In this document: piece by piece, positions 1,944-38,253 of the stretch
Layout of the letters: each line of letters opens with the position of its first letter
Position numbering within the stretch: the stretch's first letter is position 1
Virus record (IMG/VR): IMGVR_UViG_3300025607_000001
Length of the DNA: 38,253 bases
Strand: one strand, 5' to 3'
Origin: a virus
Notes under the pieces: model-generated
Told to the model about the DNA's origin: nothing
What the model saw: only the letters and a program-made list of their open reading frames with translations
The model's database searches: none
Made by a program: the position numbers and the translations under genes

Positions 1944-2166
1944 AACTATGGCTCAACCCTTAACAATCACTATAAAATTAGCGCTACCTGGTTTCGTTTT
2001 TATGTCTTGGGTGTGGTCATTGTGAGCAAATTAACAGGCCGTAAAATAGACCCGCTAAAGCTCAATTACTGGTTAGATAAAGCATTAACCTTTACTGACG
2101 GGCAAGGCAATAAAATAAAAGGCTTAGACAATGATTCACGCATTAACAAGTAGCCTTATTCACATA

Positions 2167-2227
2167 GGGGGGGTGGTCAAATCGCTACAGCCTTTTGCTT
2201 CCTGACCGTACCCCCAGGCTTTTTTTT
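2167..2227 (+). other. GC-rich imperfect hairpin plus T8 run in the HNH-terS gap (candidate terminator and/or cos region)
   Basis: GGGGTGGTCA (2170-2179) pairs with TGACC-gt-ACCCC (2203-2214). A G7 run lies at 2167-2173 and T8 at 2220-2227. Confidence 0.3.
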
Positions 2228-2293
2228 ATGTGCGCGCATGAGAAAGTTTTAGATCCTACCAAGATCCTTTAGAAAATAACCAAAGTGATTAAG

Positions 2294-2307
2294 TGTGACG
2301 CGTCACA
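2294..2307. repeat. Perfect palindrome TGTGACGCGTCACA, copy 1 of 3
   Basis: 14-bp perfect palindrome ending 15 nt before the terS ATG. The 12-nt core GTGACGCGTCAC recurs at 30561 and 36330. Confidence 0.9.
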
Positions 2308-2322
2308 GATAAGGTTTTCATT

Positions 2323-2784
2323 ATGGCACGAAAAGGCGGGCAACAAGCCAAGCCCACGGCACTGAAAAAAGCACAGGGCAATTTGGGCAAACGAAAATTA
2401 AATGAGCGCGAGCCAGAATATCAAACGCTAACGCACATTGACCCGCCAAGTAGCTTGGTTGGTAACATCGCTATTCAGGCTTGGGAATTTTACATGCCCG
2501 AGTTAATCAACAATAAAATTTTAACGGTTGTTGATATTCACAACCTAGAGCAATTTTGTAATTGCATGGATTACATTCAGCAAATGGATGAAATTCTAAA
2601 AGATTCACATTTCATTGTGGGCAAAGCGGGAATGAAAAAACACCCAGCCCACACCATACGCGCTGAGAACTTACGGTTTTTAGATAAGTTCGGCTCATTG
2701 CTTGGGCTTGATCCTAGCAGTCGAGTTGGTTTGATAGGTAAAGATAAAAACCCAGATAAGACAAACCCTTTTTCAAAGTTTTAA
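2323..2784 (+). CDS. Terminase small subunit (P27/Terminase_4-like)
   Basis: N-terminal KPTALKKAQGNLGKRKLNEREPE and C-terminal LGLDPSSRVGL are typical of P27-family small terminases. It lies directly upstream of terL. Confidence 0.85.
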   Translation: MARKGGQQAKPTALKKAQGNLGKRKLNEREPEYQTLTHIDPPSSLVGNIAIQAWEFYMPELINNKILTVVDIHNLEQFCNCMDYIQQMDEILKDSHFIVGKAGMKKHPAHTIRAENLRFLDKFGSLLGLDPSSRVGLIGKDKNPDKTNPFSKF

Positions 2785-2790
2785 AATTCT

Positions 2791-4518
2791 ATGGCCAGTT
2801 ACCCTAATGTAAACGCCGCATTTCGTTATGCGCGTGAAGTTGTCGCGGGTAAAATCTTAGTTAATCAATTGGTGCTTGCTGCTTGCCAACGTCATTTAGA
2901 CGATATGGAAAGAGCCAAAATGAGGACTAAAGATTTTCCCTATGTCTTTGACAAAGAACTGGCCGAAAGAAACTGTGAATTTATTCAATTGTTGCCACAC
3001 GCTAAAGGTAAGTGGGCCGCAAAAAAAGAACTGATCGTTTTACAACCTTGGCAATTATTCATTCAATGTATGATTTATGGCTGGGTACATCGCAAAGAAA
3101 AAACCCGCCGCTTTCGTACCGTGTATATTGCCGTTCCCAGAAAAAATGGTAAGTCGGTAATTGCAGCCGGAAACGGATTAGCATTATTTTGTGCTGATGG
3201 TGAATACGGTAGCGAGGTTTATTGTGGTGCGACAAATGAGAAACAAGCGTTAGAGGTTTTTCGCCCTGCTAAGGCAATGGCGAAAAAGACCCCTGAATTA
3301 TTAGAACACTTTGGCATTGAAGTTAATGCCAAGTCGCTTTTTATCGGTAGTGATGAATCACGCTTTGAACCTGTCATTGGCGATCCTGCTGATGGTGCAA
3401 GCCCACAGTGCTTTATTATTGACGAATACCACGAACACAGAACAAGCGCGATGTTAGATACTGCGCAAACAGGAATGATGGCGCGCGATCAGCCGCTTAC
3501 ACTAATTATCACCACTGCTGGTTTCAATGTCGACGGGCCATGTTATCAAATGGAACTTGATATACGTGATCTGCTAGAGGGTAAGTTACATAACGATCAG
3601 CTGTTTGGCATTATTTACGGCCTTGATAAAGACGACGATTGGACAGACCCAATTAACCTGGCGAAAGCTAACCCTAATTTTGGCGTGTCTATTAACGCAC
3701 AAACGTTAATGCAAGATCACAAGCAAGCAGTACAACTGGCCCATAAAGCCAACGCCTTTAAAACCAAGCATTTTAATATTTGGGTTGCTGCCGCGAATGC
3801 CTTTTTTAATATGCAGCACTGGAACCAAGGAAAAGACCCTGATTTAGATGCTAGCGCCTTTTGTTATGACGATGCTTGGTTTTGTTTAGATTTAGCGAGC
3901 AAAATTGATATAGCCGCGTTTATTCGTGTCTTTGTTCGTCACATTGATGGGGTTATTCATTACTACATTTTTTCACGGTTCTATATTCCTTATGACACCG
4001 CCCATGATACTGAACACCCAAGTTATGATTTATATCAAGAGTGGATAAAGTCTGGTGAATTAGAAGTAACCGGCGATGCCGAAATTGATTTTAATGCCAT
4101 CGAAAAAGATGTAGTGCATTTTTCCGAGGGTTGCCAAGTTCGAGAAATACCACACGATCAGTGGAACGCTTTGCAAATGGCCAGTTCTTTGGCTGCACAA
4201 GGTTTTACCCCTGTTGCCGTACCACAAACCGCGCCGCATTTTTCCCCTGCCATGAAAGAAATGGAAGCGGCTCTTGCTGCCGGTAGGGTACACCATAGCG
4301 GTAATCGTGTTTTAACTTGGATGGTTGGCAACGTAACCAGCCATGAAGATTGGAACGGTAATCACTTTCCACGAAAAGAAACTAAAACCAGCACGCGAAA
4401 AATTGACGGGGCAGTAGCCGCCATCATGGGCATAGGCCGAGCGATGCACGACCAAGGCGATTACTCTATTTATGACGATCCCAACTACGACCCAAGCGAA
4501 GCGAGCCTTGACGATTAA
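2791..4518 (+). CDS. Terminase large subunit
   Basis: 575 aa with a Walker A-like VPRKNGKS, a Walker B-like CFIIDEYHEH and a C-terminal nuclease region. Position is canonical. Confidence 0.93.
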   Translation: MASYPNVNAAFRYAREVVAGKILVNQLVLAACQRHLDDMERAKMRTKDFPYVFDKELAERNCEFIQLLPHAKGKWAAKKELIVLQPWQLFIQCMIYGWVHRKEKTRRFRTVYIAVPRKNGKSVIAAGNGLALFCADGEYGSEVYCGATNEKQALEVFRPAKAMAKKTPELLEHFGIEVNAKSLFIGSDESRFEPVIGDPADGASPQCFIIDEYHEHRTSAMLDTAQTGMMARDQPLTLIITTAGFNVDGPCYQMELDIRDLLEGKLHNDQLFGIIYGLDKDDDWTDPINLAKANPNFGVSINAQTLMQDHKQAVQLAHKANAFKTKHFNIWVAAANAFFNMQHWNQGKDPDLDASAFCYDDAWFCLDLASKIDIAAFIRVFVRHIDGVIHYYIFSRFYIPYDTAHDTEHPSYDLYQEWIKSGELEVTGDAEIDFNAIEKDVVHFSEGCQVREIPHDQWNALQMASSLAAQGFTPVAVPQTAPHFSPAMKEMEAALAAGRVHHSGNRVLTWMVGNVTSHEDWNGNHFPRKETKTSTRKIDGAVAAIMGIGRAMHDQGDYSIYDDPNYDPSEASLDD

Positions 4519-17444: not shown

Positions 17445-20120
17445 ATGACCCAACAAATAGATATTGCTGATTTAACGATCACCAAGGGCCAAGCCACCGT
17501 TACCGTTAACAGTAACGAAAGCCTGAAAGGTTATAAAGACGGCGACATTATTTTTACCACAGGCAACAAGCCTATTTTCGTAAAAATAATTACCGGGAAA
17601 ATTATTACCTTGCGTAGTAATGCCAGTTTTACGGCTAATAACGTAACTGCCGTTTTGATGGCTAATAACGTATCTTTACGCGAAGCGCTCACCACAATAC
17701 AAGAAAATAACAAAGCGTGGTCTGTGCACTTCTCGCCGTTTTTACATTGGATTTCAACCAATGAGCAAACCGCCGATTTAATTGATTCTAGCGGTAATGT
17801 TATCAATGTTTATTCTGCTCAAGGTATGAATGCTTTGGCGGTTAATATTGGCTCAGCGGTTAATGATGCGGCGCAATTACAACTTAATGTAAACACACTA
17901 ACCAGCACAGTGAGCAGTATTCAAAGCTCGCTTGACGCGTCGAAAAATGCAGCTAGAGCCAGTGAGGATAAGAGTAAAGCCAGTGAGAACGCAGCTAAAA
18001 CCAGTAAGGATCAAGCCGCCACCAGTGCCAGCGCTGCCGCTACCTCAAAGGCTGACGCGTTTAATAGTAAAAACTCAGCTAATACGGATAAATTAGCCGC
18101 CGCTAATAGTGCCAACGCTGCCAAAACAAGCGAAAACAATACCAGTGACAAGGTAACGTTAGCGAGTCAATACGCTAATCATCCCGAAGATGAATATATA
18201 CCAGGCACAACAGAATATTCTTCGAAGCATTGGAAACAAAAAGCTAAGGCTTTGGCCGGTGGTACTGCCCCCAACTCATTAGAGCTTGGTAATAAAACTG
18301 CCGCACAGTGGCAACAAGAGGTTGATGATGCGGGGGCATCGTTACCATTACCGTTAGTACACTTGTTTGCGCCTAATGAGATAGTAAAAACGCTTAGCGG
18401 AAAACTTACCAGTGCACGCCTCGGTCCCGCTACATATATTGATAGATACGGGAAATTGATTTATTCGCCTAGTCCAGTGGTCACTAACGGGGTTCCTTAC
18501 AGTGAAGATATAACAGATATATCTTGGGAAAAATTAGGCGTTACCGTTACAGGAAATGCAGGAACTGACCCTTTTGGCGGCATCAATGCAACGTTAATCA
18601 CTCCAACAGGGGGTGATTCTCTCCACTGTATTCGAGCATTTCAATTAAATTCTGTTTCTGCATCGACGACCCATTCTATTTTTGTAAAATACGCTGGTTA
18701 TAGCACTGTCGCTGTAGGTATTTATTCTGGTGGTCAGTCGAAAGAATGTAAGTTTGATTTTGATACTGGAGCTATTGACGTTGGGTCGGTTGGCGGTTCG
18801 ATGTCTGATATTGTTAGCGGAGGGGCCGAATACATATCAGAGGGGTGGTATCGTATATGGTTGAAAACAAACTTGCAGAGAACACAGATTATAATAGCTC
18901 CTAATTACACAGGAACATTTACGGGAGATACTGACAAAGGTGTGCTGGTTTTCGGTGTGGCAATTGAAAACGGTGTAACAGTGCCTAGCGGCTACCTTAA
19001 AACCACAGGCGCATCAAAGTCAGGTATTAGTTACCTTGGTATTGATACTTTGCGCATTAACGAAAAAGGTGCGCTGATCGAGGGTAGTAGCACCAACCTA
19101 TTCGCCGCTAACAGCATCAAGAGCTATACATTTTGGAATAAAGATGAAAACAACACGCTATTTTTTGATGATAGCGTACAAAATATTGACGGCACAATGG
19201 GGGCAATACGGGTAACTAACAACGATGTTAATACACGTCGAATTCACAATTCAAGAGCCAGCCCCTTAGCTTACGTTGCTAACACTAAAGTTACCGCGTC
19301 ATGTGTCGTTAGAAGCGGTAACGGTGGTGGTTTAAGAGTTCGCTTTTATGGCGATGGTGGATTATTTAAAGGTGATAAACTTTATAATATCGGTACGAAA
19401 ACACCCTCTGTATCATCGCCTAACGTCACTCTACTCAAGGTCGAGCCATTAGCTCATGGCTGGGACAGAGTGTCATTTTCCTTTGAGTCCGGCGTAAACA
19501 TTACAGATTTAGTGGCAGAGTTTTACACGTGGGACATTGGCAATATTACTGGTCAGACTATGTATATAGACTACATGCAGTTTGAAAATATTCCGTTTGC
19601 GTCAAGCATTATCATTAGTGGCGCATCCCCCGAAACAAGATCGGCTGACGATGTCAGTATACCTTGGCAGAATAATATAACGTTCGATAATTACACTATT
19701 ACAGCGGAAGTGACCTTACTTTCTAAAGATGAAGTCGTTTCAGGAACTAACGGAAGAAAGTATCTTTATAACATGAAGGGGTTTGCCATCCATGCTGCCT
19801 TTATTGATTCCGTAGGTACAAGGTTTTTCGCGTATGGCGCGGAAGGAACCACGGGGGCAGCATCTAACAGCGCTATTCCAAATACGCCTAACTTAAAAGT
19901 AGCTGTTGTTCGTGGAGCTAGCCCACAACAATTGCAAGTATACGCAGACGGCGAGGGAAGCGGAATAGACACTAGTTTTACGGAGAACGTTGTCTTGCCT
20001 CCCTCTACTAGTCGCTTTGAAATAGGTAGGCTATCTAGCGTGAGGTATCTATGGGGTTATATCAAAAACTTTAAAATATTCGATGTAGCATTAACAGCGG
20101 CGCAGGTGAAAAAATTATGA
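17445..20120 (+). CDS. Tail fibre with Ala/Ser-rich fibrous repeats and a LamG/concanavalin-like C-terminal domain
   Basis: SKASENAAKTSKDQAATSASAAATSKADAFNSKNSANT repeats. The C-terminal RYLWGYIKNFKIFDVALTAAQVKKL is typical of LamG-type domain ends. Confidence 0.75.
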   Translation: MTQQIDIADLTITKGQATVTVNSNESLKGYKDGDIIFTTGNKPIFVKIITGKIITLRSNASFTANNVTAVLMANNVSLREALTTIQENNKAWSVHFSPFLHWISTNEQTADLIDSSGNVINVYSAQGMNALAVNIGSAVNDAAQLQLNVNTLTSTVSSIQSSLDASKNAARASEDKSKASENAAKTSKDQAATSASAAATSKADAFNSKNSANTDKLAAANSANAAKTSENNTSDKVTLASQYANHPEDEYIPGTTEYSSKHWKQKAKALAGGTAPNSLELGNKTAAQWQQEVDDAGASLPLPLVHLFAPNEIVKTLSGKLTSARLGPATYIDRYGKLIYSPSPVVTNGVPYSEDITDISWEKLGVTVTGNAGTDPFGGINATLITPTGGDSLHCIRAFQLNSVSASTTHSIFVKYAGYSTVAVGIYSGGQSKECKFDFDTGAIDVGSVGGSMSDIVSGGAEYISEGWYRIWLKTNLQRTQIIIAPNYTGTFTGDTDKGVLVFGVAIENGVTVPSGYLKTTGASKSGISYLGIDTLRINEKGALIEGSSTNLFAANSIKSYTFWNKDENNTLFFDDSVQNIDGTMGAIRVTNNDVNTRRIHNSRASPLAYVANTKVTASCVVRSGNGGGLRVRFYGDGGLFKGDKLYNIGTKTPSVSSPNVTLLKVEPLAHGWDRVSFSFESGVNITDLVAEFYTWDIGNITGQTMYIDYMQFENIPFASSIIISGASPETRSADDVSIPWQNNITFDNYTITAEVTLLSKDEVVSGTNGRKYLYNMKGFAIHAAFIDSVGTRFFAYGAEGTTGAASNSAIPNTPNLKVAVVRGASPQQLQVYADGEGSGIDTSFTENVVLPPSTSRFEIGRLSSVRYLWGYIKNFKIFDVALTAAQVKKL

Positions 20121-20500
20121 TTACAGATTATATATTTGCAGTAACAGATTTAGAGGCTTTCAGAGTCTCGTTGTTATCAATTGAGTCTGATTTGGTAAGT
20201 ATTGGCGAAGATGGTGTAGCAACCATTCTCAGCCCGACCACAATGATTAAATACAAGGGGAATCAGTCAGTTGCTATTGCTAGGATTGATACTAACTCAC
20301 TGTCTGAACTAAGTAGTTTTGCTAGTATGGTTTTAGTGGGTGAGGCTAAGCAATCATTCATTAAAACTAACGATGATGTTAATTGGCTCAATGAAGATTT
20401 ATATCATTCGATTCATAGTATCGAACCGATAACTTATATAGATGATTATGGTTTTGAACAAAGCTATATCCCGTCTAAACTTCATTGTGTTTTTGCGTAG
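20117..20500 (+). CDS. Hypothetical protein (possible fibre accessory/assembly protein)
   Basis: ATGA overlap with the fibre gene stop. No motif recognised. Confidence 0.4.
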   Translation: MITDYIFAVTDLEAFRVSLLSIESDLVSIGEDGVATILSPTTMIKYKGNQSVAIARIDTNSLSELSSFASMVLVGEAKQSFIKTNDDVNWLNEDLYHSIHSIEPITYIDDYGFEQSYIPSKLHCVFA

Positions 20501-20511
20501 GAATATTAATC

Positions 20512-20877
20512 ATGGGTATTTGGTCTAGTTTATTTGGTAAAGACAATGTTATTCAAGCGGGCATTGATGGCCTTGACAAAATAGTGCACACCGACGAAGA
20601 AAAGTCAGACGCTAAACAAGCGTTTTTAAAGTTATACGAACCGTTTAAAATTGCACAACGTTTGTTGGCTGTTATTTATGGCGTGCCTTATGCGCTCGCG
20701 TGGTTTGTTACCTTTATGGTGTCATTTTTTACGGACGTATCAAAACAAGAGGCGTTATTGCAGGGCGATATAAGCCGCATTGTTTTTGCTATTGTTAGTT
20801 TTTACTTTGGTGGTGGTGCTGCTGAGGGTGTTGTTAGAATGTTAGCTAATAGAGGTAAGAACAGTGAAAGAAAGTAA
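20512..20877 (+). CDS. Holin-like membrane protein (3TM GTA-holin-like)
   Basis: Internal ATG (MGIWSSLFGK...) after AGGAATATTAATC. A hydrophilic N-terminus is followed by hydrophobic helices (LLAVIYGVPYALAWFVTFMVSFF, IVFAIVSFYFGGGAA). Confidence 0.45.
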   Translation: MGIWSSLFGKDNVIQAGIDGLDKIVHTDEEKSDAKQAFLKLYEPFKIAQRLLAVIYGVPYALAWFVTFMVSFFTDVSKQEALLQGDISRIVFAIVSFYFGGGAAEGVVRMLANRGKNSERK

Positions 20878-21094
20878 ACGTCATTATTTAATGCGGGTCT
20901 TAATCGCCTTTGACCAGTTTTTTAATGTACTGGTTTTTAATGGACGGCCCGATCATACTATTTCTGGTCGTGTTGGTTATTTTGCTATTAAGGGTGAAAA
21001 ATGGGCGTTGTATTGGGAAAAAATAATTAACACTTTGTTTTTCTGGCAAGCTGATCATTGTAGAAAATCAATTGAATGGGATGAAATGAAGTAA
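20864..21094 (+). CDS. Small conserved-looking phage protein (76 aa), last gene of the late operon
   Basis: Overlaps the preceding gene and is followed by a strong terminator. No function assigned. Confidence 0.45.
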   Translation: MKESKRHYLMRVLIAFDQFFNVLVFNGRPDHTISGRVGYFAIKGEKWALYWEKIINTLFFWQADHCRKSIEWDEMK

Positions 21095-21116
21095 GTACAA
21101 GGTGAGTATAAGTTAA

Positions 21117-21154
21117 GCAAGGCTATGATTAATCATAGATCCTTGCTTTTTTTT
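21117..21154 (+). terminator. Intrinsic terminator ending the late operon
   Basis: Long stem GCAAGGCTATGATT / AATCATAG-at-CCTTGC followed by T8. Confidence 0.75.
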
Positions 21155-21218
21155 GCTGTAGCATAACCGATCATCAATATATCGTTCAGGCTATTTAAAT
21201 AATAAAATAGTGGAAATA

Positions 21219-23403: not shown

Positions 23404-23955
23404 ATGAAATTTGGTTACGCAAGGGTTAGCACTAAACAACAAGAATTAGCCTTACAAGTAGACGCGCTTAAAGCGGCTGGCTGTGATGAAATAATCACCG
23501 AAGTTGAAACAGGCGCGAACAATGATCGCCCCGCACGATTGGCCATGATAGATAAGCTTAGAAAAGGCGATATTGTGACGGTGTGGCGTTTAGATAGGTT
23601 TGGCCGTTCTATGCCTGATTTAATAGAAAAGGTTGAACAGTTAAGCGCCCAAGGTGTTGAGTTTATCTCGTTACAAGAAAATATAGATACTACCTCAGCC
23701 ACGGGCCGGTTAATTTTTCATATTTTTGCGGGCCTCGCAGAATTTGAACGTAATTTGATTTCAGAAAGAACAAGAGCCGGATTAGCAGCAGCACGAAAAC
23801 GCGGTAAATTGGGTGGAAGAAAAAGAATTATGAATGATATTCAGGTCAAAACAGCTAGACGATTAATATCAGGGGAAAACCCCGTAAATCGTGAAGAAGT
23901 GGCCAAAATGCTTGGCGTTAGCCGGTCAACACTTTACCGAGAATTAAAAGAATAA
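23404..23955 (+). CDS. Serine recombinase (resolvase/DNA-invertase family)
   Basis: GYARVSTKQQ (catalytic Ser), VWRLDRFGRS, AGLAAARKRGKLGGRKR and a C-terminal HTH (GVSRSTLYRELK). Confidence 0.92.
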   Translation: MKFGYARVSTKQQELALQVDALKAAGCDEIITEVETGANNDRPARLAMIDKLRKGDIVTVWRLDRFGRSMPDLIEKVEQLSAQGVEFISLQENIDTTSATGRLIFHIFAGLAEFERNLISERTRAGLAAARKRGKLGGRKRIMNDIQVKTARRLISGENPVNREEVAKMLGVSRSTLYRELKE

Positions 23956-27659: not shown

Positions 27660-27689
27660 CTGAATACCCCAAAGTGTTGCATTTAGGTG

Positions 27690-27718
27690 ATGCGGTCTAG
27701 CTATAGGCCGCATTCTTT
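27690..27718 (+). terminator. Terminator-like hairpin after the kfrA-like gene
   Basis: ATGCGG / CCGCAT stem followed by TCTTTC. Confidence 0.4.
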
Positions 27719-27750
27719 CGTTATGGTGATCGGGAATATGCTTTGATATG

Positions 27751-27778
27751 TGCAACAGTTCTGTGCAGTTCTGTTGCA
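27751..27778. other. Hairpin TGCAACAG-N12-CTGTTGCA containing the AACAG motif
   Basis: 8-bp perfect arms. The loop carries the direct repeat CAGTTCTGT x2. Confidence 0.5.
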
Positions 27779-27829: not shown

Positions 27830-28003
27830 CTATTTTAATTCTTTATCCGCTAAACTTTTTAGCCATGCCCCAAGCTTTAACCCCTGCTTTTTGGCTTCTG
27901 CCTCATAGAGTATTTTCATATCTGGTTCAACCCTAAATTCACATCTAGCGCTTGCCTTGACTTGTTTCATAGGTCGCCCAACCTTTTTTTTATCATCTTT
28001 CAT
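27830..28003 (-). CDS. Ribbon-helix-helix repressor (57 aa), paralogue-like to the ParG-like protein
   Basis: Internal ATG (MKDDKKK...). ARCEFRVEPDMKILYEAEAKKQGLKLGAWLKSLA parallels VTLTLTPQELENFTAKAGGLPLGTYLKNFL. Confidence 0.65.
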   Translation of the reverse strand: MKDDKKKVGRPMKQVKASARCEFRVEPDMKILYEAEAKKQGLKLGAWLKSLADKELK

Positions 28004-28010
28004 GCTGCGA

Positions 28011-28039
28011 ATATTAGTACGTACAATAAACAAATGCAA
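28011..28039 (-). promoter_or_regulatory. Promoter of the RHH gene with an embedded operator; predicted leaderless mRNA
   Basis: Minus strand: TTGCAT, a 17-nt spacer containing TTGTACGTAC, TAATAT, then 7 nt, then ATG. Confidence 0.5.
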
Positions 28040-28054
28040 TATTTAATTAATGTC

Positions 28055-28108
28055 CGTACTTTTATTGACTTTATAAAACAATAATGTATTATTGTACGTA
28101 CATTAATT
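28055..28108 (+). promoter_or_regulatory. Promoter/operator copy A (TTGACT-16-TATTAT, operator TTGTACGTACA)
   Basis: -35 at 28065-28070, -10 at 28087-28092, GTACGTAC at 28094-28101. Shares 15-nt and 24-nt identical blocks with copy B exactly 280 bp downstream. Confidence 0.6.
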
Positions 28109-28133
28109 ATCTGAACAGTTCTAAGGCAATCAA

Positions 28134-28298
28134 ATGGAAACTTTAAATTTAGGAAACAACGAGTCACTAGTTAGAGGCGTATTCAATAATAACGATGGCA
28201 CTTTTACAGTATTAACTTTTACTCGGTCTTGGACTTACAAAACAGAAAAAGCCGCTAACAAAAAATGGTCTGCCTTAGTATCAGCCGACTTGGTTTAG
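28134..28298 (+). CDS. Small protein (54 aa, METLNLGNNESLVRGVFNNNDGTFTVLTFTRSWTYKTEKAANKKWSALVSADLV)
   Basis: Not in the track because it is under 60 aa. AAGG lies upstream. It is bracketed by the two promoter copies. Confidence 0.45.
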   Translation: METLNLGNNESLVRGVFNNNDGTFTVLTFTRSWTYKTEKAANKKWSALVSADLV

Positions 28299-28334
28299 TC
28301 GATTACGTACAATAAAAATAATTACTTTATTGTA

Positions 28335-28388
28335 CGTACTTTTATTGACATCTATAAATATAGGTGTATTATTGTACGTACATTAATT
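28335..28388 (+). promoter_or_regulatory. Promoter/operator copy B (TTGACA-16-TATTAT, two GTACGTAC operators)
   Basis: -35 at 28345-28350, -10 at 28367-28372. GTACGTAC at 28332-28339 and 28374-28381, plus the near-copy TTACGTACAA at 28303-28312. Confidence 0.6.
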
Positions 28389-28415
28389 GTTTAGACACTT
28401 TCCAAGGTATACAAA

Positions 28416-28628
28416 ATGAATTCATCAATAAACATCACAATAAAAGACTTTAGCTGCACTGATTATGACGTTAAACGTGATTCAAAATTGGTTGGGACTT
28501 TAGTCAAAAACAATAAATATTCAAGCTTACTTAAATTCGTACCGCTTGAAGATTCAGGGCTTATGCACTTGGATGGCAAAGTATTCATGGATGTTTTAAC
28601 GGCTAATTTAACTATTGCAAAGGCGTAA
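28416..28628 (+). CDS. Small protein (70 aa), translationally coupled to the methyltransferase
   Basis: RBS CAAGG. Its TAATG overlaps the next gene. Confidence 0.5.
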   Translation: MNSSINITIKDFSCTDYDVKRDSKLVGTLVKNNKYSSLLKFVPLEDSGLMHLDGKVFMDVLTANLTIAKA

Positions 28629-29239
28629 TGAAATTGAAGATATTAAATTTATATGCGGGTCTTGGTGGAAATAGAAAGTTATGGGAGGGGCACGAAGTCA
28701 CAGCCGTTGAAATGGATGAAAAAATTGCCGCTGTTTATAAACGATTAAACCCTAATGATGAAGTGATTATTGCTGATGCTCACGAATACTTATTACAACA
28801 TTATCAAGAGTTTGATTTTATTTGGGCCTCGCCTCCATGCCAAAGCCATTCCCGTATGATCAGGTCTGGCAGAAATAGAAAGCCCCGCTTTGCTGATATG
28901 AAATTGTATGAAGAAATTCTATTTTTAGAACATAACTTTGATGGTCAATGGGTGGTTGAAAATGTCAAACCTTACTACCAGCCATTGATTGAATATCAAA
29001 ATATTGGCCGTCATGTTTTTTGGTCTAACTTCGATATTCCGCACATGGATGAACCAAAATTTAAAAACTTTATTAATGCGCAAAACCTAAAAGCGAAACA
29101 AGCCTTAATGGAGTGGTTAGATATTCACTACGAAGAAAACATTTACTACGGTAACAACCATTGCCCCACGCAGGTTTTGCGTAACTGTGTACACCCTACC
29201 GTGGGAAAACACATCATTGAAGCGGCAATTGCTGCATAA
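28628..29239 (+). CDS. DNA (cytosine-5) methyltransferase, unusually short (203 aa)
   Basis: Motif I LNLYAGLGG, motif IV ASPPCQSHS, motif VI VVENV and a C-terminal RNCVHPTVGKHI (motif X-like). Confidence 0.82.
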   Translation: MKLKILNLYAGLGGNRKLWEGHEVTAVEMDEKIAAVYKRLNPNDEVIIADAHEYLLQHYQEFDFIWASPPCQSHSRMIRSGRNRKPRFADMKLYEEILFLEHNFDGQWVVENVKPYYQPLIEYQNIGRHVFWSNFDIPHMDEPKFKNFINAQNLKAKQALMEWLDIHYEENIYYGNNHCPTQVLRNCVHPTVGKHIIEAAIAA

Positions 29240-29270
29240 ACTGAACAGAATAGCCCGTAGGGATAAACAA

Positions 29271-29552
29271 ATGATTGTCATATTTAAAAACGAACAGGGT
29301 ACTTTTTCGGTAAGACCTGCATTTATAGGCTTTATCAAAAACGATATTATTCGAAGAACTTTAACCTCGTTATTCTTCCCACTAATACTATTTTTAACCA
29401 TCGTTATTAATATTATTCAAGCGGCTTTTGTTTCCATTATTTTATTTGCTAGGTCTGTTTATTATCCATTATCAAAGATAAAACCAATGTGGAAAACAGA
29501 TATTTGGCATAGGCCAAGAACGAAAAACGACAATAAAAAAACATTAAACTAA
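29271..29552 (+). CDS. Small membrane protein (93 aa)
   Basis: Internal ATG of track ORF 29187..29552, chosen because it lies after the MTase stop and after the AACAGAAT junction motif. Hydrophobic core LFFPLILFLTIVINIIQAAFVSIILF. Confidence 0.45.
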   Translation: MIVIFKNEQGTFSVRPAFIGFIKNDIIRRTLTSLFFPLILFLTIVINIIQAAFVSIILFARSVYYPLSKIKPMWKTDIWHRPRTKNDNKKTLN

Positions 29553-29565
29553 ACAGAATTAAGCG
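29550..29565 (+). repeat. Intergenic junction repeat TAAACAGAATTAAGCG (identical copy at 29828..29843)
   Basis: Exact 16-nt identity. Each copy lies 28-30 nt upstream of a start codon. Confidence 0.9.
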
Positions 29566-29579
29566 GAGTTAGATCGGAT

Positions 29580-29825
29580 ATGGAAAAAATAACATTAAAA
29601 ATAGGTCGTCATGAGTACGATATTAGTAGTGACGATACATTTATGGATAACAGCCATTGCGTTCAATTAACTTCACAAAGTAAAGAGAACATAGATATTG
29701 GTGGTGGTCGTTGTAACCCTGTGCTTTCTCAACGTGCAGTTAAACAAATAGCAAGTTTTGAGCGAATGCAATTACAGCATGGCTACGGCTCAAATGTTCA
29801 AATATTTAGCTTGAACATCAATTAA
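29580..29825 (+). CDS. Hypothetical protein (81 aa)
   Basis: Track ORF, preceded by the exact 16-nt junction repeat and a purine-rich RBS. Confidence 0.5.
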   Translation: MEKITLKIGRHEYDISSDDTFMDNSHCVQLTSQSKENIDIGGGRCNPVLSQRAVKQIASFERMQLQHGYGSNVQIFSLNIN

Positions 29826-29827
29826 CT

Positions 29828-29843
29828 TAAACAGAATTAAGCG
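29828..29843 (+). repeat. Intergenic junction repeat TAAACAGAATTAAGCG (second copy)
   Basis: Exact copy of 29550..29565. Confidence 0.9.
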
Positions 29844-29859
29844 TACAGATAGGAATGTT

Positions 29860-30093
29860 ATGAATAAATACGATGAAACTTTACCAGTATTAAATAAAGA
29901 TCAAGTCTTTGTTTGCGAGGATGGCTGTGGTGACTGTGAAGCTGTTGAGTTTGATTATTGCTATAGCCGGTCTGAAAACCTAGCAACTGGCAAAGTGGTT
30001 GAACTGACACATAGAGCTTATAAATCTAGCTGCTGTGGAGCCAAAATTAATGTTTGGGATGAATCAATAGAAGATATTGTTCAACAAAAGTAG
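29860..30093 (+). CDS. Cys-rich small protein (77 aa; CEDGCGDCE ... SCCG)
   Basis: Track ORF, preceded by the exact 16-nt junction repeat and AGGAA. Confidence 0.5.
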   Translation: MNKYDETLPVLNKDQVFVCEDGCGDCEAVEFDYCYSRSENLATGKVVELTHRAYKSSCCGAKINVWDESIEDIVQQK

Positions 30094-30148
30094 GCTTTTA
30101 TATAAAGCTAAATGTGCAACACAATTACCCCTACCGGAGCAATAAACA

Positions 30149-30340
30149 ATGAGTATCGAAGAATTTAACAAGTATCAGCATCATGCAAACATGTGGGTGA
30201 TGTACCAAGGGAAAAGAAAATACGTTATTTCTGTTAGCTTTACAGAGGCGCTTTTTGGTCTTTGTGATGATAAAGAAGAAACCCCACCTGACGAATGGTC
30301 ATGGGTTCGTTGTGAAAACGTAGAAGTGATTTATGAGTGA
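30149..30340 (+). CDS. Hypothetical protein (63 aa)
   Basis: Track ORF with RBS GGAG. The variant junction motif AACACAAT lies 31 nt upstream. Confidence 0.5.
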   Translation: MSIEEFNKYQHHANMWVMYQGKRKYVISVSFTEALFGLCDDKEETPPDEWSWVRCENVEVIYE

Positions 30341-30476
30341 TAAGCAAATGCAAGAAATTATGGTTTTACAGAAAATACGTGAAGCGGTGGGGGATAATGG
30401 CAAGTTAATGCAAGACGAACTTGTTGAATATATCGCAGATTTAAAGCGTAAAGCTGATTTGTTCGATAACCTTTAA
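30333..30476 (+). CDS. Possible small protein (47 aa, MSDKQMQEIMVLQKIREAVGDNGKLMQDELVEYIADLKRKADLFDNL)
   Basis: Its ATG overlaps the upstream stop (ATGAGTGA). Helical and charged. Not in the track because it is under 60 aa. Confidence 0.4.
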   Translation: MSDKQMQEIMVLQKIREAVGDNGKLMQDELVEYIADLKRKADLFDNL

Positions 30477-30504
30477 TTTTTGCAACAGAATAACCAATAG
30501 GAAA

Positions 30505-30532
30505 CAAAAAAAGGGCTTAGGCCCTTTTTTGT
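30505..30532. terminator. Bidirectional terminator between convergent operons
   Basis: AAGGGC-ttag-GCCCTT flanked by A7 and T6. Confidence 0.8.
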
Positions 30533-30560: not shown

Positions 30561-30572
30561 GTGACGCGTCAC
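30561..30572. repeat. Perfect palindrome GTGACGCGTCAC, copy 2 of 3
   Basis: Flanked by the direct repeat TATAGTGTG (30555 and 30576). It ends 15 nt from the stop codon (30590..30588) of the minus-strand gene 30588..31406. Confidence 0.9.
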
Positions 30573-32121: not shown

Positions 32122-32171
32122 TATAGGGCAAATAAAAGGCGTACTAATGCACGCCTTTTGTTTGCCCTATA
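32122..32171. terminator. Long hairpin (21-nt arms, one mismatch) overlapping the cI stop codon; terminator in both directions
   Basis: TATAGGGCAAATAAAAGGCGT - actaatgc - ACGCCTTTTGTTTGCCCTATA. The inner GC stem is followed by a T-rich tract on both strands. Confidence 0.65.
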
Positions 32172-32751
32172 ACCAGCGATTTATATTAACCACACTGCCT
32201 ATTATGTCGAGGTCGTCGACACTTTCTACTTTTTGATCGGGATAGTTTTCTTTGTCTGTACAATAAACAGTAAAACCGCCTGATAGCTCGGGACGTATCC
32301 ATTTTATCCACAAACCGCCATTGCCTTTTATTACGTACAGCCCTAATTTATCAACGGTGTTGATAGCGCTATTTATTAATACTTCATCGCCTTTGTCTAT
32401 TTTGGGCGAACAGCTATTATCCATTGCAACATGAGTCAGGATATTATCTCGATTAATGCCGCGTTCGGCTAATCGGTCTATTTGGCTGACTTGGTTATTT
32501 GTTGAGTTTTTTAAAAAGTCCCATGCTAAGAGTTCACGGGTGGTGCCAAGTATTTTGGCCATGCTTTCGTAAAAGTGGTGGCTTGGCTCTCTTATGCCTA
32601 GTTCCCAATTATTCCATTGGCTACGGCTAAAAGGTTGCCCCTCAAGCTCTGACAATTTCTTGCTGGTTTCTACCATATTCAACCCGAGTTTTTTACGGCG
32701 TTGCATTATGTATAGACCTAATTTTCCTGTCCATTCACTTTTTTGACTCAT
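32167..32751 (-). CDS. CI-like repressor (XRE HTH plus S24 LexA-type autopeptidase domain)
   Basis: N-terminal HTH (LGLNMVETSKKLSELEG...WELGIREPS). C-terminal NSCSPKIDKGDEVLIN (Ser block) and GGLWIKWI (Lys block). Divergent from the cro-like gene. Confidence 0.82.
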   Translation of the reverse strand: MSQKSEWTGKLGLYIMQRRKKLGLNMVETSKKLSELEGQPFSRSQWNNWELGIREPSHHFYESMAKILGTTRELLAWDFLKNSTNNQVSQIDRLAERGINRDNILTHVAMDNSCSPKIDKGDEVLINSAINTVDKLGLYVIKGNGGLWIKWIRPELSGGFTVYCTDKENYPDQKVESVDDLDIIGSVVNINRWL

Positions 32752-32834
32752 CCGAAACACCTGTGTTTATTAAGCAGTACGTGACTATTGTTTTTAGTTT
32801 ACCACACAATGCAGATATTGCTAATGTAAATACC

Positions 32835-32869
32835 TTGATACAATCACGGTGTGTGTTATATTTAACACA
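32835..32869 (+). promoter_or_regulatory. Candidate rightward early promoter with overlapping operator palindrome
   Basis: TTGATA (32835-40), a 16-nt spacer, TATATT (32857-62). The palindrome TGTGTTA-TATT-TAACACA (32852-32869) overlaps the -10. Confidence 0.5.
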
Positions 32870-32893
32870 TATTGTGGTATAAGGTGTTTGATA

Positions 32894-34386: not shown

Positions 34387-35568
34387 ATGAATGCTATCAC
34401 CGTTAAGCTGTCAGACGCTGAGCTAAAGCGACAAATTGAAACCGAGGTAAAGGAATTAAACGATCCTAGATTACCACTTAGGGTGCGTTTTCATAAATCC
34501 CGAGAAAAGGCCACTATCTTTTTAGTGGAATACGTTAAGGGCCAAGGTAAATGGCATAGGGTTGGCTATTGGCCGCAATTAACGATTAAAGCCCTAATTA
34601 ACACTAAGTATTGGGCTGAGCTTCAACAAAAGTATTTGTTATCAGGTCAGGTTGAGTTTGATGCCTTTTATTTGGCGGCTGACGTACTGGTTTGGTACAG
34701 AGAACGGGCGTTAAGTCAGGTTAATTTATCTAAAGATAGAAAAGCTAATATTAAGTCGGTGATCAATAAACACTTAATCCCCATGATAGGCCATTACCAG
34801 GTAAAAGAGTTTTCCCCCGAAATCATAGAAGAGGCTTTTATCTGGCCGTTACAAAGTCGCTATAAATTATCGACAGTACAACAATATTTCAAAGTATTAA
34901 AACGTATTTTCAAACAAGCAAAATTAAGTAAAAAGCTATGTAATAACCCATTGGCCGACATTAAGTTAAGTGACTCGATCACCGGAAAAATAGAAATAAA
35001 AGCCTGTCAAATAGCAACACATGATCTAGATGCTCTATTTAAAACCATGAAGATAATACCCTTTGAACCCAGCTTTTTAGTATTAACTATGTTGTGTTTT
35101 GGTACGCGTATAGGCGAAACACGACAAATGAAAATAAGCCATTTAGAACATGATCAGCAGCAATGGCATTTACCCGCAAAAATAACCAAAACCAATGAGC
35201 CATTAGTTACCCCAATAAGCGATTGGTATTTAACTTTACTTAACGAATATAGAAAAAAGCAAACGTTGATAAATGGCTATAGCGGTGTCTATTTATTTCC
35301 TAATACTAAGGGCGATTGTATTAATGAAAACACCGCCAATGATTATGTTCAATACTTATCTAATAGAGAATGGACGGCTCACGATTTACGCAAATTAGCG
35401 CGTACTACTTGGGCAACATTACACGTTGATTATTTTGTTGGTGAGCAGTTGTTAAACCATAAAATGAAAGACTTAGACGCCGCTTATATTCACAGCACAT
35501 TAGATGAATTGAAACGAAAAGCCATTAACGATTGGCATTTTTTTTTGGCGCAAAAAAAGCCGAAATAA
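34387..35568 (+). CDS. int: Tyrosine integrase (P4-like)
   Basis: N-terminal arm-binding-type domain (PLRVRFHKSREKATIFLVEY...GYWPQLTIKA). Catalytic residues in GTRIGETRQ, AHDLRKLARTTW and LNHK...AAYIH. Confidence 0.9.
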   Translation: MNAITVKLSDAELKRQIETEVKELNDPRLPLRVRFHKSREKATIFLVEYVKGQGKWHRVGYWPQLTIKALINTKYWAELQQKYLLSGQVEFDAFYLAADVLVWYRERALSQVNLSKDRKANIKSVINKHLIPMIGHYQVKEFSPEIIEEAFIWPLQSRYKLSTVQQYFKVLKRIFKQAKLSKKLCNNPLADIKLSDSITGKIEIKACQIATHDLDALFKTMKIIPFEPSFLVLTMLCFGTRIGETRQMKISHLEHDQQQWHLPAKITKTNEPLVTPISDWYLTLLNEYRKKQTLINGYSGVYLFPNTKGDCINENTANDYVQYLSNREWTAHDLRKLARTTWATLHVDYFVGEQLLNHKMKDLDAAYIHSTLDELKRKAINDWHFFLAQKKPK

Positions 35569-35985: not shown

Positions 35986-36333
35986 ATGGCTAAAGCACGA
36001 ACGGATGCCCAAAGGCAAAAGAAGAGTCGAGACAAAAAAAAGGATTTAGGCGAGCGAGAAATTAGGCTTAAAGTATCATCGGCAGAATATGCCATGATTG
36101 AAAAACTATGTAAGTTGCGAGCCGGTTGCCGCGAACCTTACACACCAGGTGATTACTTGGTGACATTATTTAGAAAGGTGTTACCGCTCGATGATGAAAA
36201 ATATCATACTCAAGCCAAAGCCCTTGGCATGTGTGATTATTGTAATGAGGTAATGCCCGCTGGTTGTGGGGGTGCTTTTAAAGGCCAAAAGGAATGTTAT
36301 CACACCAAGCAATACAGAGAGTTAGAGTTGTGA
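35986..36333 (+). CDS. Putative regulator: basic N-terminus plus RHH-like segment plus Cys-rich C-terminus
   Basis: REIRLKVSSAEYAMIEKL is RHH-like, and CDYCNEVMPAGCGG...CYH is Cys-rich. Its TGA stop lies inside palindrome copy 3. Confidence 0.45.
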   Translation: MAKARTDAQRQKKSRDKKKDLGEREIRLKVSSAEYAMIEKLCKLRAGCREPYTPGDYLVTLFRKVLPLDDEKYHTQAKALGMCDYCNEVMPAGCGGAFKGQKECYHTKQYRELEL

Positions 36334-36343
36334 CGCGTCACAA
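36328..36343. repeat. Perfect palindrome TTGTGACGCGTCACAA, copy 3 of 3
   Basis: 16-bp perfect palindrome at the start of the gap that precedes the late operon. Confidence 0.9.
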
Positions 36344-37453: not shown

Positions 37454-38253
37454 ATGACAATTCCACATTTAATAAAAGGCGTTTCAAACGTTGATGATTT
37501 ATTTGATCGTGTAAACGCTCTTATTACCGCACAAACTGGGGTTGAACTGCCTGTTGTAGCAGCTCCTTTTGATATATGGATGGTGGCGGGTCAATCACTT
37601 TCAATCGGCACATTAAACCCTGCATTTAACGTGAAGCCACCGCAGCCGCAAATACCCAGTAACTTTAAAATGTTTAATCAAGTTGGCTCAACTGGCGTAC
37701 AAGATAGAGCACTAATCCCAAGTGACATTAATGAGTTAGTAGCGTATCAAGAGCAAGGCGAATCGGGCATGGCTAGCTATTACACGCTAGGGACTACATT
37801 TTTAGCTGGAACTACAACCAAGGAAACCGCATGGATTCCTGCGGGTAAAGGCGGTGGGTCTATAGAAAATATCGGTAAAGACGGTTCATATGCGTGCTAT
37901 GCGAACCAGCAAGCTATGCTAGCAAGGCTAAAGGTATTGCAAAGCAGTGCAACCGTTAAAGGGATTATTTTCATTCATGGTGGTGCTAATTATCAGGACA
38001 CCAAGCAAGAATACTACGATAAAATGGTAGCGTTTTTAGCTGACCAAATAAGTGCTATACAAGCTGAATATCCCAACCAAACCCCTCCTTTGTACATATA
38101 TCAACACGGTGGCGAGCGAATTACCGATCAGGTACAACAAGCTCAGTTACAAATGGCTAAAGATGGGTTGGCTGTTTGTGTTGGTGCAACATACTGGCTC
38201 AACAGACAGCACCCCAATACGTCTGAGGGGCTTAACGGGTCAACAAACTTTGA
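37454..38253 (+). CDS. SGNH/SASA-type carbohydrate (O-acetyl) esterase, N-terminal part; continues across the circular junction into 1..1088
   Basis: ATG 37454 follows an in-frame TAG (37439-41), and I found no stop before the window end. My translation contains WMVAGQSLSIG (GQS nucleophile block) and IIFIHGGANYQD. The frame joins position 27 of the window (38153 = 27). Confidence 0.65.
   Translation, partial: MTIPHLIKGVSNVDDLFDRVNALITAQTGVELPVVAAPFDIWMVAGQSLSIGTLNPAFNVKPPQPQIPSNFKMFNQVGSTGVQDRALIPSDINELVAYQEQGESGMASYYTLGTTFLAGTTTKETAWIPAGKGGGSIENIGKDGSYACYANQQAMLARLKVLQSSATVKGIIFIHGGANYQDTKQEYYDKMVAFLADQISAIQAEYPNQTPPLYIYQHGGERITDQVQQAQLQMAKDGLAVCVGATYWLNRQHPNTSEGLNGSTNF
38127..38253. repeat. 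Terminal overlap identical to 1..127
   Basis: Same 127-nt string as the window start. It lies inside an open reading frame. Confidence 0.97.

Follow-up and report, generated by a model that had tools for sequence, protein, structure and literature searches.

A start-associated junction motif in a putatively repressor-controlled array of small genes in a temperate phage

The array and its genes

The stretch of DNA analysed here (the window) is the 38,253 nt IMG/VR virus record IMGVR_UViG_3300025607_000001. We describe an array of small genes carried in it and a short, strand-specific motif found at the junctions between these genes, which, from comparison with related phages, appears to mark the limits between exchangeable gene cassettes. 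A complete genome of a temperate phage makes up the window, and because its two ends (1-127 and 38127-38253) are identical over 127 nt, the assembly is circular and the genome is 38,126 bp. Virion genes occupy approximately 1-21 kb, and the array lies between the virion/accessory region and the lysogeny module, in a segment that is flanked on its two sides by hairpins resembling terminators (27689-27714 and 30507-30530).

There are eight open reading frames (ORFs) in 28134-30476, encoding proteins of 54, 70, 203, 93, 81, 77, 63 and 47 aa. The original prediction for this region had counted nine genes. The ORFs, here referred to as o1 to o8, and the terminator that follows them are as follows.

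28134-28298, plus strand: o1, 54 aa, DUF1391 (YdfA family; Pfam PF07151, E = 1.4e-19; phrog_751)
28416-28628, plus strand: o2, 70 aa, conserved partner directly 5' of the methyltransferase gene
28628-29239, plus strand: o3, 203 aa, short protein resembling C5-cytosine methyltransferases; its start and the stop of o2 overlap
29271-29552, plus strand: o4, 93 aa, hydrophobic (membrane) protein, the hydrophobic stretch being read from the translation; homologues not found
29580-29825, plus strand: o5, 81 aa
29860-30093, plus strand: o6, 77 aa, Cys-rich
30149-30340, plus strand: o7, 63 aa
30333-30476, plus strand: o8, 47 aa, overlaps the end of o7
30507-30530, both strands: bidirectional intrinsic terminator, closing the array and a convergent leftward operon

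The junction motif in the window

The sequence AACAGAAT is found seven times in the window, where 1.8 copies are expected, and none of 100 shuffles reached seven. Copies that are intergenic and on the plus strand start at 29244, 29552, 29830 and 30484, the first three at distances of 27, 28 and 30 nt from the downstream ATGs (29271, 29580 and 29860, respectively), and an exact 16-mer, TAAACAGAATTAAGCG, is present at 29550 and 29828. Variants are found at 30118 (AACACAAT, 31 nt before the ATG at 30149) and at 28114 (AACAGTTC, 20 nt before the ATG at 28134). After the copy at 30484 come AGGAAA and the terminator at 30507-30530, in that order, and a hairpin lies at 27751-27778. All of these positions had been given correctly in the original prediction.

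When copies from the window and from related phages were aligned, AACAGAAT proved to be part of a longer strand-specific motif, Y-K-N-AACAGAAT-W-R-CCC-S. The 14-nt core of this motif is near-invariant at A1, C3, T8 and C11-C13, in a logo that partly reflects the matrix used to select the copies. This 20-nt weight matrix was derived from 15 seed copies in the window and in three related arrays (L099, L093 and L092; the L numbers denote related loci), and the scores of the seeds are fitted by construction. Scanning the window with it returned five matches of 21-28 bits, all on the plus strand within 29240-30499, and otherwise nothing above 10.2 bits on either strand. In approximately 0.77 Mb of unrelated phage DNA, both strands considered, there were two matches of at least 14 bits. 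The copies in the window, with the diverged version that precedes the first gene, are listed here.

28111-28122, plus strand: leader variant, CTGAACAGTTCT, ahead of the first gene, in its 5' untranslated region (UTR); the hypervariable block has its left edge here
29240-29259, plus strand: junction copy 1, ACTGAACAGAATAGCCCGTA, core 29244-29257, 27 nt before the o4 ATG, 28.5 bits
29548-29567, plus strand: junction copy 2, ACTAAACAGAATTAAGCGGA, core 29552-29565, contains the o4 stop codon, 28 nt before the o5 ATG, 21.1 bits
29826-29845, plus strand: junction copy 3, CTTAAACAGAATTAAGCGTA, core 29830-29843, 30 nt before the o6 ATG, 21.3 bits
30114-30133, plus strand: junction copy 4, GTGCAACACAATTACCCCTA, core 30118-30131, 31 nt before the o7 ATG, 22.9 bits, TACCCC subtype
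30480-30499, plus strand: terminal junction copy 5, TTGCAACAGAATAACCAATA, core 30484-30497, 21.4 bits, AACCAA subtype, no ORF after it; right edge of the hypervariable block

Copies 2 and 3 form a 23-nt direct repeat (91 % identity). Each of the four internal junctions that have a spacer, namely those before o4, o5, o6 and o7, carries a strong copy. The motif is not found at o2 (28416), nor at o3 (28628) and o8 (30333), the starts of which overlap the preceding stop, and in the leader of o1 it has diverged (CTGAACAGTTC at 28111). The proposal that most of the genes are preceded by the motif is an overstatement: it holds for the four with starts at 29271, 29580, 29860 and 30149, but not for the first gene, with its diverged variant, or for the three genes that lack a copy.

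The motif in related arrays

Related arrays were sought using as anchors the ribbon-helix-helix (RHH) protein encoded beside the array, o2 and the motif itself, and were recovered from IMG/VR, JGI, ENA and Logan assemblies and from one bacterial genome. In total, 36 copies were found in nine independent arrays of uncultured phages, some related and some unrelated, all on the coding strand (window, 5; L099, 7; L093, 6; L103, 2; L104, 3; L092, 1; L261, 4, with further weaker copies; L195, 2; L263b, 6). L093 is identical to L105, L195 contains the same cassette as L132, and L092 is a prophage of Pseudoalteromonas luteoviolacea CPMOR-1. The matches in L103, L104, L261, L195 and L263b are independent of the matrix seeds. 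A shared cis element had been proposed, and the motif, which was to be missing from homologous arrays of relatives if this were wrong, is present in them and is thus a real shared element.

At junctions with an assignable downstream start, the copy is 25-40 nt from that start, or 49 nt at one junction. Between the previous stop and the motif, the spacing is highly variable (0-88 nt), with several stop codons lying inside the motif, and in L261 one copy is within the upstream ORF, the distance to the next start nevertheless being kept. Copies are also found in the 5' UTR immediately behind the main promoter in L099 (position 647) and L104 (position 583), where an additional promoter would be pointless.

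Several arrays end with one copy of the motif just before the terminator or the next module. The AACCAA subtype closes the arrays in L093, L195 and L263b and precedes the last gene in L099, the TACCCC subtype is also present in L093, L099, L104 and L263b, and the leader variant is found again in the first-gene leader of L093, L261 and L103. The terminal copy in the window had been interpreted as a gene-loss scar. However, this sequence, GCAACAGAATAACCAA, is a conserved array-end junction in five of the arrays studied and is therefore not a recent scar.

Strong intrinsic terminator hairpins, e.g. AAGCCGCTTTATTGCGGCTTTTT, are found directly 5' of some copies (array positions 1190-1212 in L103 and approximately 900-975 in L104), and L104 includes a motif copy followed by a terminator and then by a second motif copy, with no ORF between. 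Locus L263 (contig Ga0209395_1000200, 91.5 kb) carries the window phage and, after it, a different phage region, which has its own integrase and a 132-aa S24-family protein. The array there, L263b (17800-21182, minus strand), includes a 199-aa methyltransferase-like gene and five small ORFs, and its six motif copies include a TAAGCG subtype.

Scans of IMG/VR for exact 14-mers, 16-mers and 17-mers yielded only L132 and L195 as clear new arrays. The 14-mer and 16-mer matches were mostly isolated, and the 17-mer matches were mostly unlike gene junctions, as judged by appearance. Candidate singletons were seen in L233, L235, L240 and L241. The possibility that the motif travels with the o5 gene was also considered and rejected, as the o5 homologues in L085-L091 (58-78 % identity) are without the motif, except for an inverted 11-mer that adjoins the homologue in L090 and is not convincing statistically, and for a single match of 16.8 bits in L085.

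Mosaic boundaries at the motif

The window and L099 share the RHH/promoter block up to approximately 28110 and everything to the right of approximately 30499 (approximately 75 % identity), and nothing is shared between these points. Both breakpoints abut a copy of the motif, the leader variant at 28111 on the left and the terminal copy at 30484-30497 on the right.

At individual junctions, identical runs of 22-27 nt precede unrelated ORFs in different phages. A 27-nt run at copy 1 is identical to the junction that follows an unrelated 480-aa methyltransferase gene in L093, and a 23-nt run at copy 2 is common to the window and L263b, where it precedes a different ORF. In L103, two contexts of the same gene become identical precisely from base 1 of the motif onwards. 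The unrelated phage L195 has, between a helix-turn-helix (HTH) gene and terminase genes, a cassette of two genes that is bracketed by an AGCCCG-type and an AACCAA-type copy. As the ORFs are almost all unrelated and the breakpoints fall at the motif, the motif is far better conserved than the genes that it flanks and marks mosaic boundaries.

Judging from these comparisons, the array is a hypervariable cassette operon, apparently promoterless internally, and the motif would mark the boundaries of its exchangeable cassettes. Recombination boundaries that shuffle gene cassettes were one of several possibilities raised by the original prediction, and it is this one that has the most direct support.

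The putative repressor gene, operators and promoters

The region upstream of the array, including the intergenic region between o1 and o2, contains the following features.

27830-28003, minus strand: gene for the putative RHH repressor, 57 aa from the ATG at 28003, the ORF being extendable to a TTG at 28039; divergent from the array
28015-28103: operator cluster 1, TAGTACGTACAA at 28015-28026, degenerate ATGTCCGTACTT at 28050-28061 and TTGTACGTACAT at 28092-28103
28065-28092, plus strand: promoter P1, TTGACT-16-TATTAT, inside operator cluster 1
28301-28383: operator cluster 2, GATTACGTACAA at 28301-28312, TTGTACGTACTT at 28330-28341 and TTGTACGTACAT at 28372-28383
28345-28372, plus strand: promoter P2, TTGACA-16-TATTAT, inside operator cluster 2

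The promoter/operator block is duplicated (28047-28120 and 28327-28400, 77 % identity), with the o1 gene between the copies. Both promoters are near-consensus and of the sigma-70 type, and palindromes of the TTGTACGTACAA type are interleaved with them. In the relatives with a readable leader (L093, L097 and L261), the o2 homologue is first behind the promoter and no o1-type gene intervenes.

Eighteen homologues of the RHH protein were found (55-100 % identity). The NikA-like RHH family in Pfam matches 17 of 18 RHH members, all under its curated cut-off. In the AlphaFold2 (AF2) model, an extended N-terminal segment is followed by helices at 27-40 and 44-56, and the top Foldseek matches of this model are Arc, which is first, NikA-N, the RHH antitoxins VapB, AtaR and KacA, CopG and ParG, with E-values that are non-significant for so short a chain. 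Repressors of the RHH (Arc/MetJ/CopG) kind have about 45-60 aa, with an N-terminal beta-strand and two helices after it, and use palindromic operators. The protein, with an N-terminal extended segment and two helices in 57 aa, and the conserved palindromes adjoining its gene agree with this. Operators of the form GTACGTAC lie beside the RHH gene in all nine related loci checked (9/9), irrespective of the genes that follow. Given an RHH-like regulator with conserved palindromes beside its gene, it is a well-founded inference that the RHH protein represses P1 and P2 via the TTGTACGTACAA-type palindromes. The proposed operator control of the array is borne out by the tandem TTGAC(T/A)-16-TATTAT promoters among these palindromes, the divergent RHH gene and the retention of the operators in all relatives.

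The intergenic region between CI and cro (32761-32880) contains palindromes of a different form, A(A/C)CACA...TGTG(G/T)T, e.g. AACACATATTGTGGT. The half-site of this CI operator resembles the core of the junction motif, without the CCC part.

Methyltransferases and other cargo

Among the 78 ORFs of the arrays, an all-against-all BLASTP comparison found only three families common to arrays, namely methyltransferases, the o2 family (70 aa) and one further family (116 aa). The operons are headed either by C5 methyltransferases, which come in four different sizes, or by an SGGxxS (PP-loop-like) protein. The head genes encode 203 aa in the window, 475-480 aa in L093, L097 and L261, 305 and 440 aa in L100, and 293 aa in L092. 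Homologues of o2 (64-75 % identity) are the first gene in L093, L097 and L261, where they precede the unrelated 475-480-aa C5 methyltransferases. In L099, the first gene behind the RHH promoter (array positions 679-1596) encodes a 305-aa protein that is not a methyltransferase and has an SGGYSS motif of the PP-loop type, assigned by eye; it is possibly another DNA-modification function.

The o3 protein matches PF00145 over residues 4-79 (E = 2.4e-9, above the cut-off) and also matches TIGR00675. Its translation includes LYAGLGG, PPCQ and ENV, which correspond to catalytic motifs I (FxGxG), IV (PCQ) and VI (ENV), and its best sequence matches in PDB are chains of DNMT2-type tRNA methyltransferases (E about 6e-4). 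The profile match ends at approximately residue 118, and the protein has 203 aa versus the at least approximately 320 aa of a full-length enzyme with a target-recognition domain and motifs VIII-X. Phage proteins of the o3 type, approximately 200 aa in length, are found in at least 595 related stretches in IMG/VR, the best 80 of which share 49-76 % identity with it. Going by length, this family is too short for a canonical target-recognition domain. As an anchor for synteny, the o3 methyltransferase was of no use, since none of the 80 loci compared (L005-L084) was syntenic.

For o5, 11 homologues (58-78 % identity) were found in other contexts. Its AF2 model is confident, with a predicted local distance difference test (pLDDT) score of 89. 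Despite this, no match was found in PDB, and the BFVD matches are uncharacterised viral proteins only. An ORF 57 % identical to o8 adjoins the methyltransferase homologue in L031, L033 and L034.

From the families seen, the recurring cargo is, by annotation, DNA-modification enzymes. The position of the methyltransferases at the head of the operons makes an early self-protection role plausible for them, o3 included. For the small ORFs, an anti-defence role is no more than a guess; they gave no informative match to anti-defence proteins in Pfam, PHROGs and NCBIfam, which are general libraries with no dedicated anti-defence library among them. That the array is an establishment or anti-defence island, as had been suggested, would depend only on the recurrent methyltransferases at the operon heads, the small ORFs matching no known anti-defence protein.

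Likely role of the motif

We consider it most likely, with a probability of about 0.5, that the motif is a start-associated cassette-junction element with a combined role, providing an unstructured leader for expression and a patch of homology for exchange. When the phage DNA enters a cell without repressor, the operon would fire from P1 and P2, and the RHH protein would then shut it down. The operon would be a chain of promoterless units, each made up of the 14-nt motif (AACAGAAT-W-R-CCC-S), 0-12 nt, a Shine-Dalgarno (SD) sequence, an ORF and its stop, with one extra motif copy closing the chain before the terminator. As part of a standard single-stranded, C/A-rich 5' leader, the motif would serve each cassette via translation initiation or mRNA processing. 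Because the motif is the only sequence shared between cassettes, it could also be where crossovers take place when homologous recombination, general or phage-encoded, exchanges, inserts and deletes them, in the way that the promoter early stem-loop (PeSL) elements of T4-type phages act. The junction RNAs are less structured than their shuffles (mean z = +0.6), and most of the motif remains single-stranded in the folds predicted for them.

Several points weigh against this combined role. The RNA-level part of it is inferred from position, strand and lack of structure. Pairing with 16S rRNA was tried as an explanation and rejected, since the duplex energies equal those of shuffled motifs, the rRNA used being E. 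coli rrsH and not that of the host. No regulator, sigma factor or activator family that might act on the motif in trans is common to the motif-bearing arrays (78 ORFs). The RHH-controlled arrays L094, L097 and L100 lack the motif, and it is thus not required for RHH-controlled operons. On the recombination side, a core of 14-27 nt is short for homologous recombination of the RecA type, and some of the conservation of the motif could come from repeated exchange, i.e. common descent of the junctions, rather than from functional selection. Least well explained is the strong intrinsic terminator just upstream of the motif at some junctions, which would fit a promoter better than a function that is purely post-transcriptional.

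A bolder version of the cassette interpretation is that the arrays represent a previously undescribed platform in temperate marine phages, in which promoterless ORFs with 14-nt junctions are captured, put in order and exchanged among unrelated phages behind a repressor-gated burst promoter, the junction being a shared post-transcriptional control point for a specific host or phage factor. It would be a phage counterpart of the integron, having a cis code of its own, for DNA-modification and probably counter-defence genes. We regard this version as possible but doubtful.

Small orphan-gene arrays hold much of the counter-defence and host-takeover repertoire of phages, and little is known of their assembly and co-expression except in T4-type phages and mycobacteriophages. 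In the present case, a short and precisely positioned motif outlasts the genes that it flanks across at least nine phage arrays. It offers a testable cis code with which arrays can be found in metagenomes and the cassette boundaries and true starts of orphan ORFs can be recognized, and it permits testing, for the temperate phages that infect marine Gammaproteobacteria, whether signals for expression also act as substrates of recombination. Through the arrays, control of phage DNA methyltransferases is also linked to an RHH repressor whose operators are fixed.

Alternative explanations

Stoperators, as known for the 13-bp sites of the L5 repressor, have the operator sequence of the repressor and are distributed genome-wide. 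It is conceivable, although in our view unlikely, that the junction motif acts in a similar way, with a repressor that binds to the asymmetric motif in the lysogen and, like the L5 repressor, stops RNA polymerase during elongation at every junction. The motif resembles the stoperators of L5 and further phages from Cluster A in being short, asymmetric, intergenic, present in many copies and strictly co-oriented with transcription (PMC3203893), and there is a faint resemblance between the motif core, AACA(G/C)AAT, and the CI half-sites, A(A/C)CACAAT, in the window and L099. However, identity of the motif with the RHH or CI operators was looked for and rejected, as the sequences differ. It is unlike the TTGTACGTACAA operators of the array's own promoters, and its best-conserved part, R-CCC-S, is missing from the CI operators, which share a core of at most 6-7 nt with it. 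The same motif accompanies CI proteins in the window and L099 that are only 31 % identical, and the only S24-family protein seen in the L263b stretch has 132 aa and is unlike either of them. The copies are confined to one operon, not spread over the genome, and a roadblock needs no fixed distance to the start codon.

It also appears improbable that the motif is a translational operator or processing site for a trans-acting factor that would co-regulate the cassettes after the early burst; the factor might be a repressor like RegA, an endoribonuclease or a small RNA whose seed is rich in G/U. A motif that is single-stranded, conserved in sequence and at a set distance from the SD sequence and the start would suit such a factor. 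GcvB-type small RNAs target C/A-rich elements, which the motif resembles in composition, and the plus strand at 27768-27778 (GTTCTGTTGCA), in the hairpin at 27751-27778, is complementary to TGCAACAGAA(C/U). Against this, no factor is conserved within the arrays, the complementary arm of the hairpin is base-paired, its loop is not conserved, and the element is missing from L099 and L104. No other antisense copy of at least 11 bits is present in the window, and Rfam finds no RNA family or RNA gene in the region. The hairpin was considered separately as the source of an antisense RNA and set aside, as it is conserved only in the window, L095 and L093, with a loop that differs, and is missing from the motif-bearing L099 and L104. 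A link between the motif and this hairpin, which had been suggested from the AACAG that they share, is therefore not sustained.

An internal promoter, which had also been proposed, seems quite improbable. In this explanation, CAGAAT (motif positions 3-8) would be a -10-like hexamer followed by a GC-rich discriminator, RCCCS, with a phage or host activator perhaps replacing the -35 element, and every cassette would have its own transcript. The invariant A4 and T8 do coincide with two key -10 positions, and transcription would start approximately 10-25 nt before each ATG. At several junctions, the motif directly follows an intrinsic terminator, so that the next gene would need a promoter of its own. 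However, -35 elements are not enriched at 16-18 nt, where the mean is 2.5 of 6 matches, as it is at shifted control offsets, and the junctions are missing from the consensus promoter scan. Sigma-70 promoters do not typically have an invariant C at -12, copies a few nt behind the start site of the main promoter and before the terminal terminator make no sense as promoters, and the arrays have no sigma factor or activator candidate in common. Promoters of the sigma-54, sigma-28 and extracytoplasmic function (ECF) types were also compared by eye, and their consensus sequences fit poorly.

Highly unlikely is dedicated site-specific recombination of the integron kind, with the motif as the site at which a phage recombinase captures and excises cassettes: integron attC sites are imperfect inverted repeats (R''/L''...L'/R') of 57-141 bp that form a hairpin and are found beside IntI and attI, and although the array likewise has one promoter, co-oriented promoterless ORFs, a site at each junction, a terminal site and hypervariable content, in a phage that encodes tyrosine and serine recombinases, its junctions are only 30-60 nt with no attC-type inverted repeat or hairpin (attC-like folding was looked for and rejected), there is no adjacent IntI or attI, the integrase gene being 4 kb away in another module and the invertase, also distant, being classed by family match alone, the identity runs between arrays end variably with no single fixed crossover, and L195 has a cassette but no RHH operators in the stretch examined.

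Two further candidates for the junctions were tried and rejected. For a hairpin between the CCC run and the SD sequence that would sequester the latter, the predicted stems are of only 2-3 bp and the junctions are, as above, less structured than shuffles. The other was an insulator designed from stops in each of the three frames, in which respect the junctions do not differ from a neighbouring control segment.

Comparison with known systems

The motif works like the start-associated sequences (SAS) of mycobacteriophages and like PeSL, and is a member of neither group; nor does it appear to be a stoperator or an attC site. SAS, from Cluster K mycobacteriophages, are asymmetric, start-linked repeats in one orientation before genes of different families; they are 13 bp (GGGATAGGAGCCC), lie 3-7 bp from the start and contain the AGGAG Shine-Dalgarno core (Pope et al. 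2011, PMC3203893). With SAS and extended SAS (ESAS), the motif shares a short, asymmetric, multi-copy form, restriction to the non-structural region and an essentially single orientation before starts. In both systems, the upstream stop is sometimes inside the repeat, the gene families that follow differ, and the repeat is conserved across related phages. However, the motif described here is unrelated in sequence, is mostly 25-40 nt (and up to 49 nt) upstream and precedes the SD sequence; the hosts are probably Gram-negative marine bacteria, and the copies coincide with mosaic breakpoints.

PeSL are conserved intergenic motifs of T4-type phages, composed of a sigma-70 promoter and a terminator stem-loop, at which orphan ORFs are shuffled (Arbiol et al. 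2010, PMC2839356; Comeau et al. 2014, PMC4122927). In both systems, conserved intergenic motifs flank orphan ORFs in hypervariable regions, and recombination between copies explains ORF insertion, deletion and replacement. In contrast to PeSL, the motif includes no -35/-10 promoter and no stem-loop, only a few junctions having a separate upstream terminator, and the cassettes are promoterless behind one regulated promoter, in a temperate siphovirus-like phage of 38 kb.

The dicA-ydfABC-dicF-dicB-ydfD region of the Qin prophage in E. coli K-12 also has a DUF1391 (YdfA) gene first in a repressor-controlled run of very small genes. It differs in that its repressor, DicA, is of the HTH type and that its other genes are unrelated, and it is not known to have a junction motif.

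In the immI region of P22, the RHH repressors Mnt and Arc control Pant, and immI is a secondary control region between the virion genes and the lysogeny module. The window resembles it in having a small RHH repressor, palindromic operators over a strong promoter and the same genome position, and Arc is the top structural match of the RHH protein. It differs in having one RHH gene, not two, and in the genes controlled, which are DNA-modification enzymes and orphan ORFs, and no homologue of the antirepressor (Ant) was detected.

The phage and further observations

Other features of the window referred to above are as follows.

23404-23955: DNA invertase gene, assigned by match to the phrog_125 family alone
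27751-27778: inverted repeat, TGCAACAG-N12-CTGTTGCA, downstream of the RHH gene; its membership in the system is uncertain
32167-32760, minus strand: CI-like repressor gene
34387-35568: integrase gene

The phage is temperate and siphovirus-like, and at approximately 100 % identity it is also present on several JGI metagenome contigs. No close relative of it was found in reference phage and plasmid collections, and relatives of the proteins flanking the array were not found in IMG/VR. One homologue of the RHH regulator is encoded in a genome contig of Pseudoalteromonas luteoviolacea, which suggests an Alteromonadales-type host.

Arrays without AACAGAAT have other repeated strings just before their starts. 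In L094 (reverse strand, array positions 2100-3650), strings of the TTGGAATAAG type are present four times, and in L097 (2250-2925), junction strings of the (T)AGATAGGAAAAGG type are found three times, just before start codons.

A 23-nt direct repeat (78 % identity) that ends in TGCAACAG brackets the whole RHH-plus-array module, with copies at 27736-27758 and 30466-30488. This hints that the module itself may have been inserted or exchanged at motif-like sequences.

The 12-bp palindrome GTGACGCGTCAC is found three times in the window (2295-2306, 30561-30572 and 36330-36341), compared to 0.03 expected. One copy is 17 nt upstream of the probable start of the small-terminase gene (2323) and another is immediately to the right of the array terminator. 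The palindrome is probably a regulator binding site.

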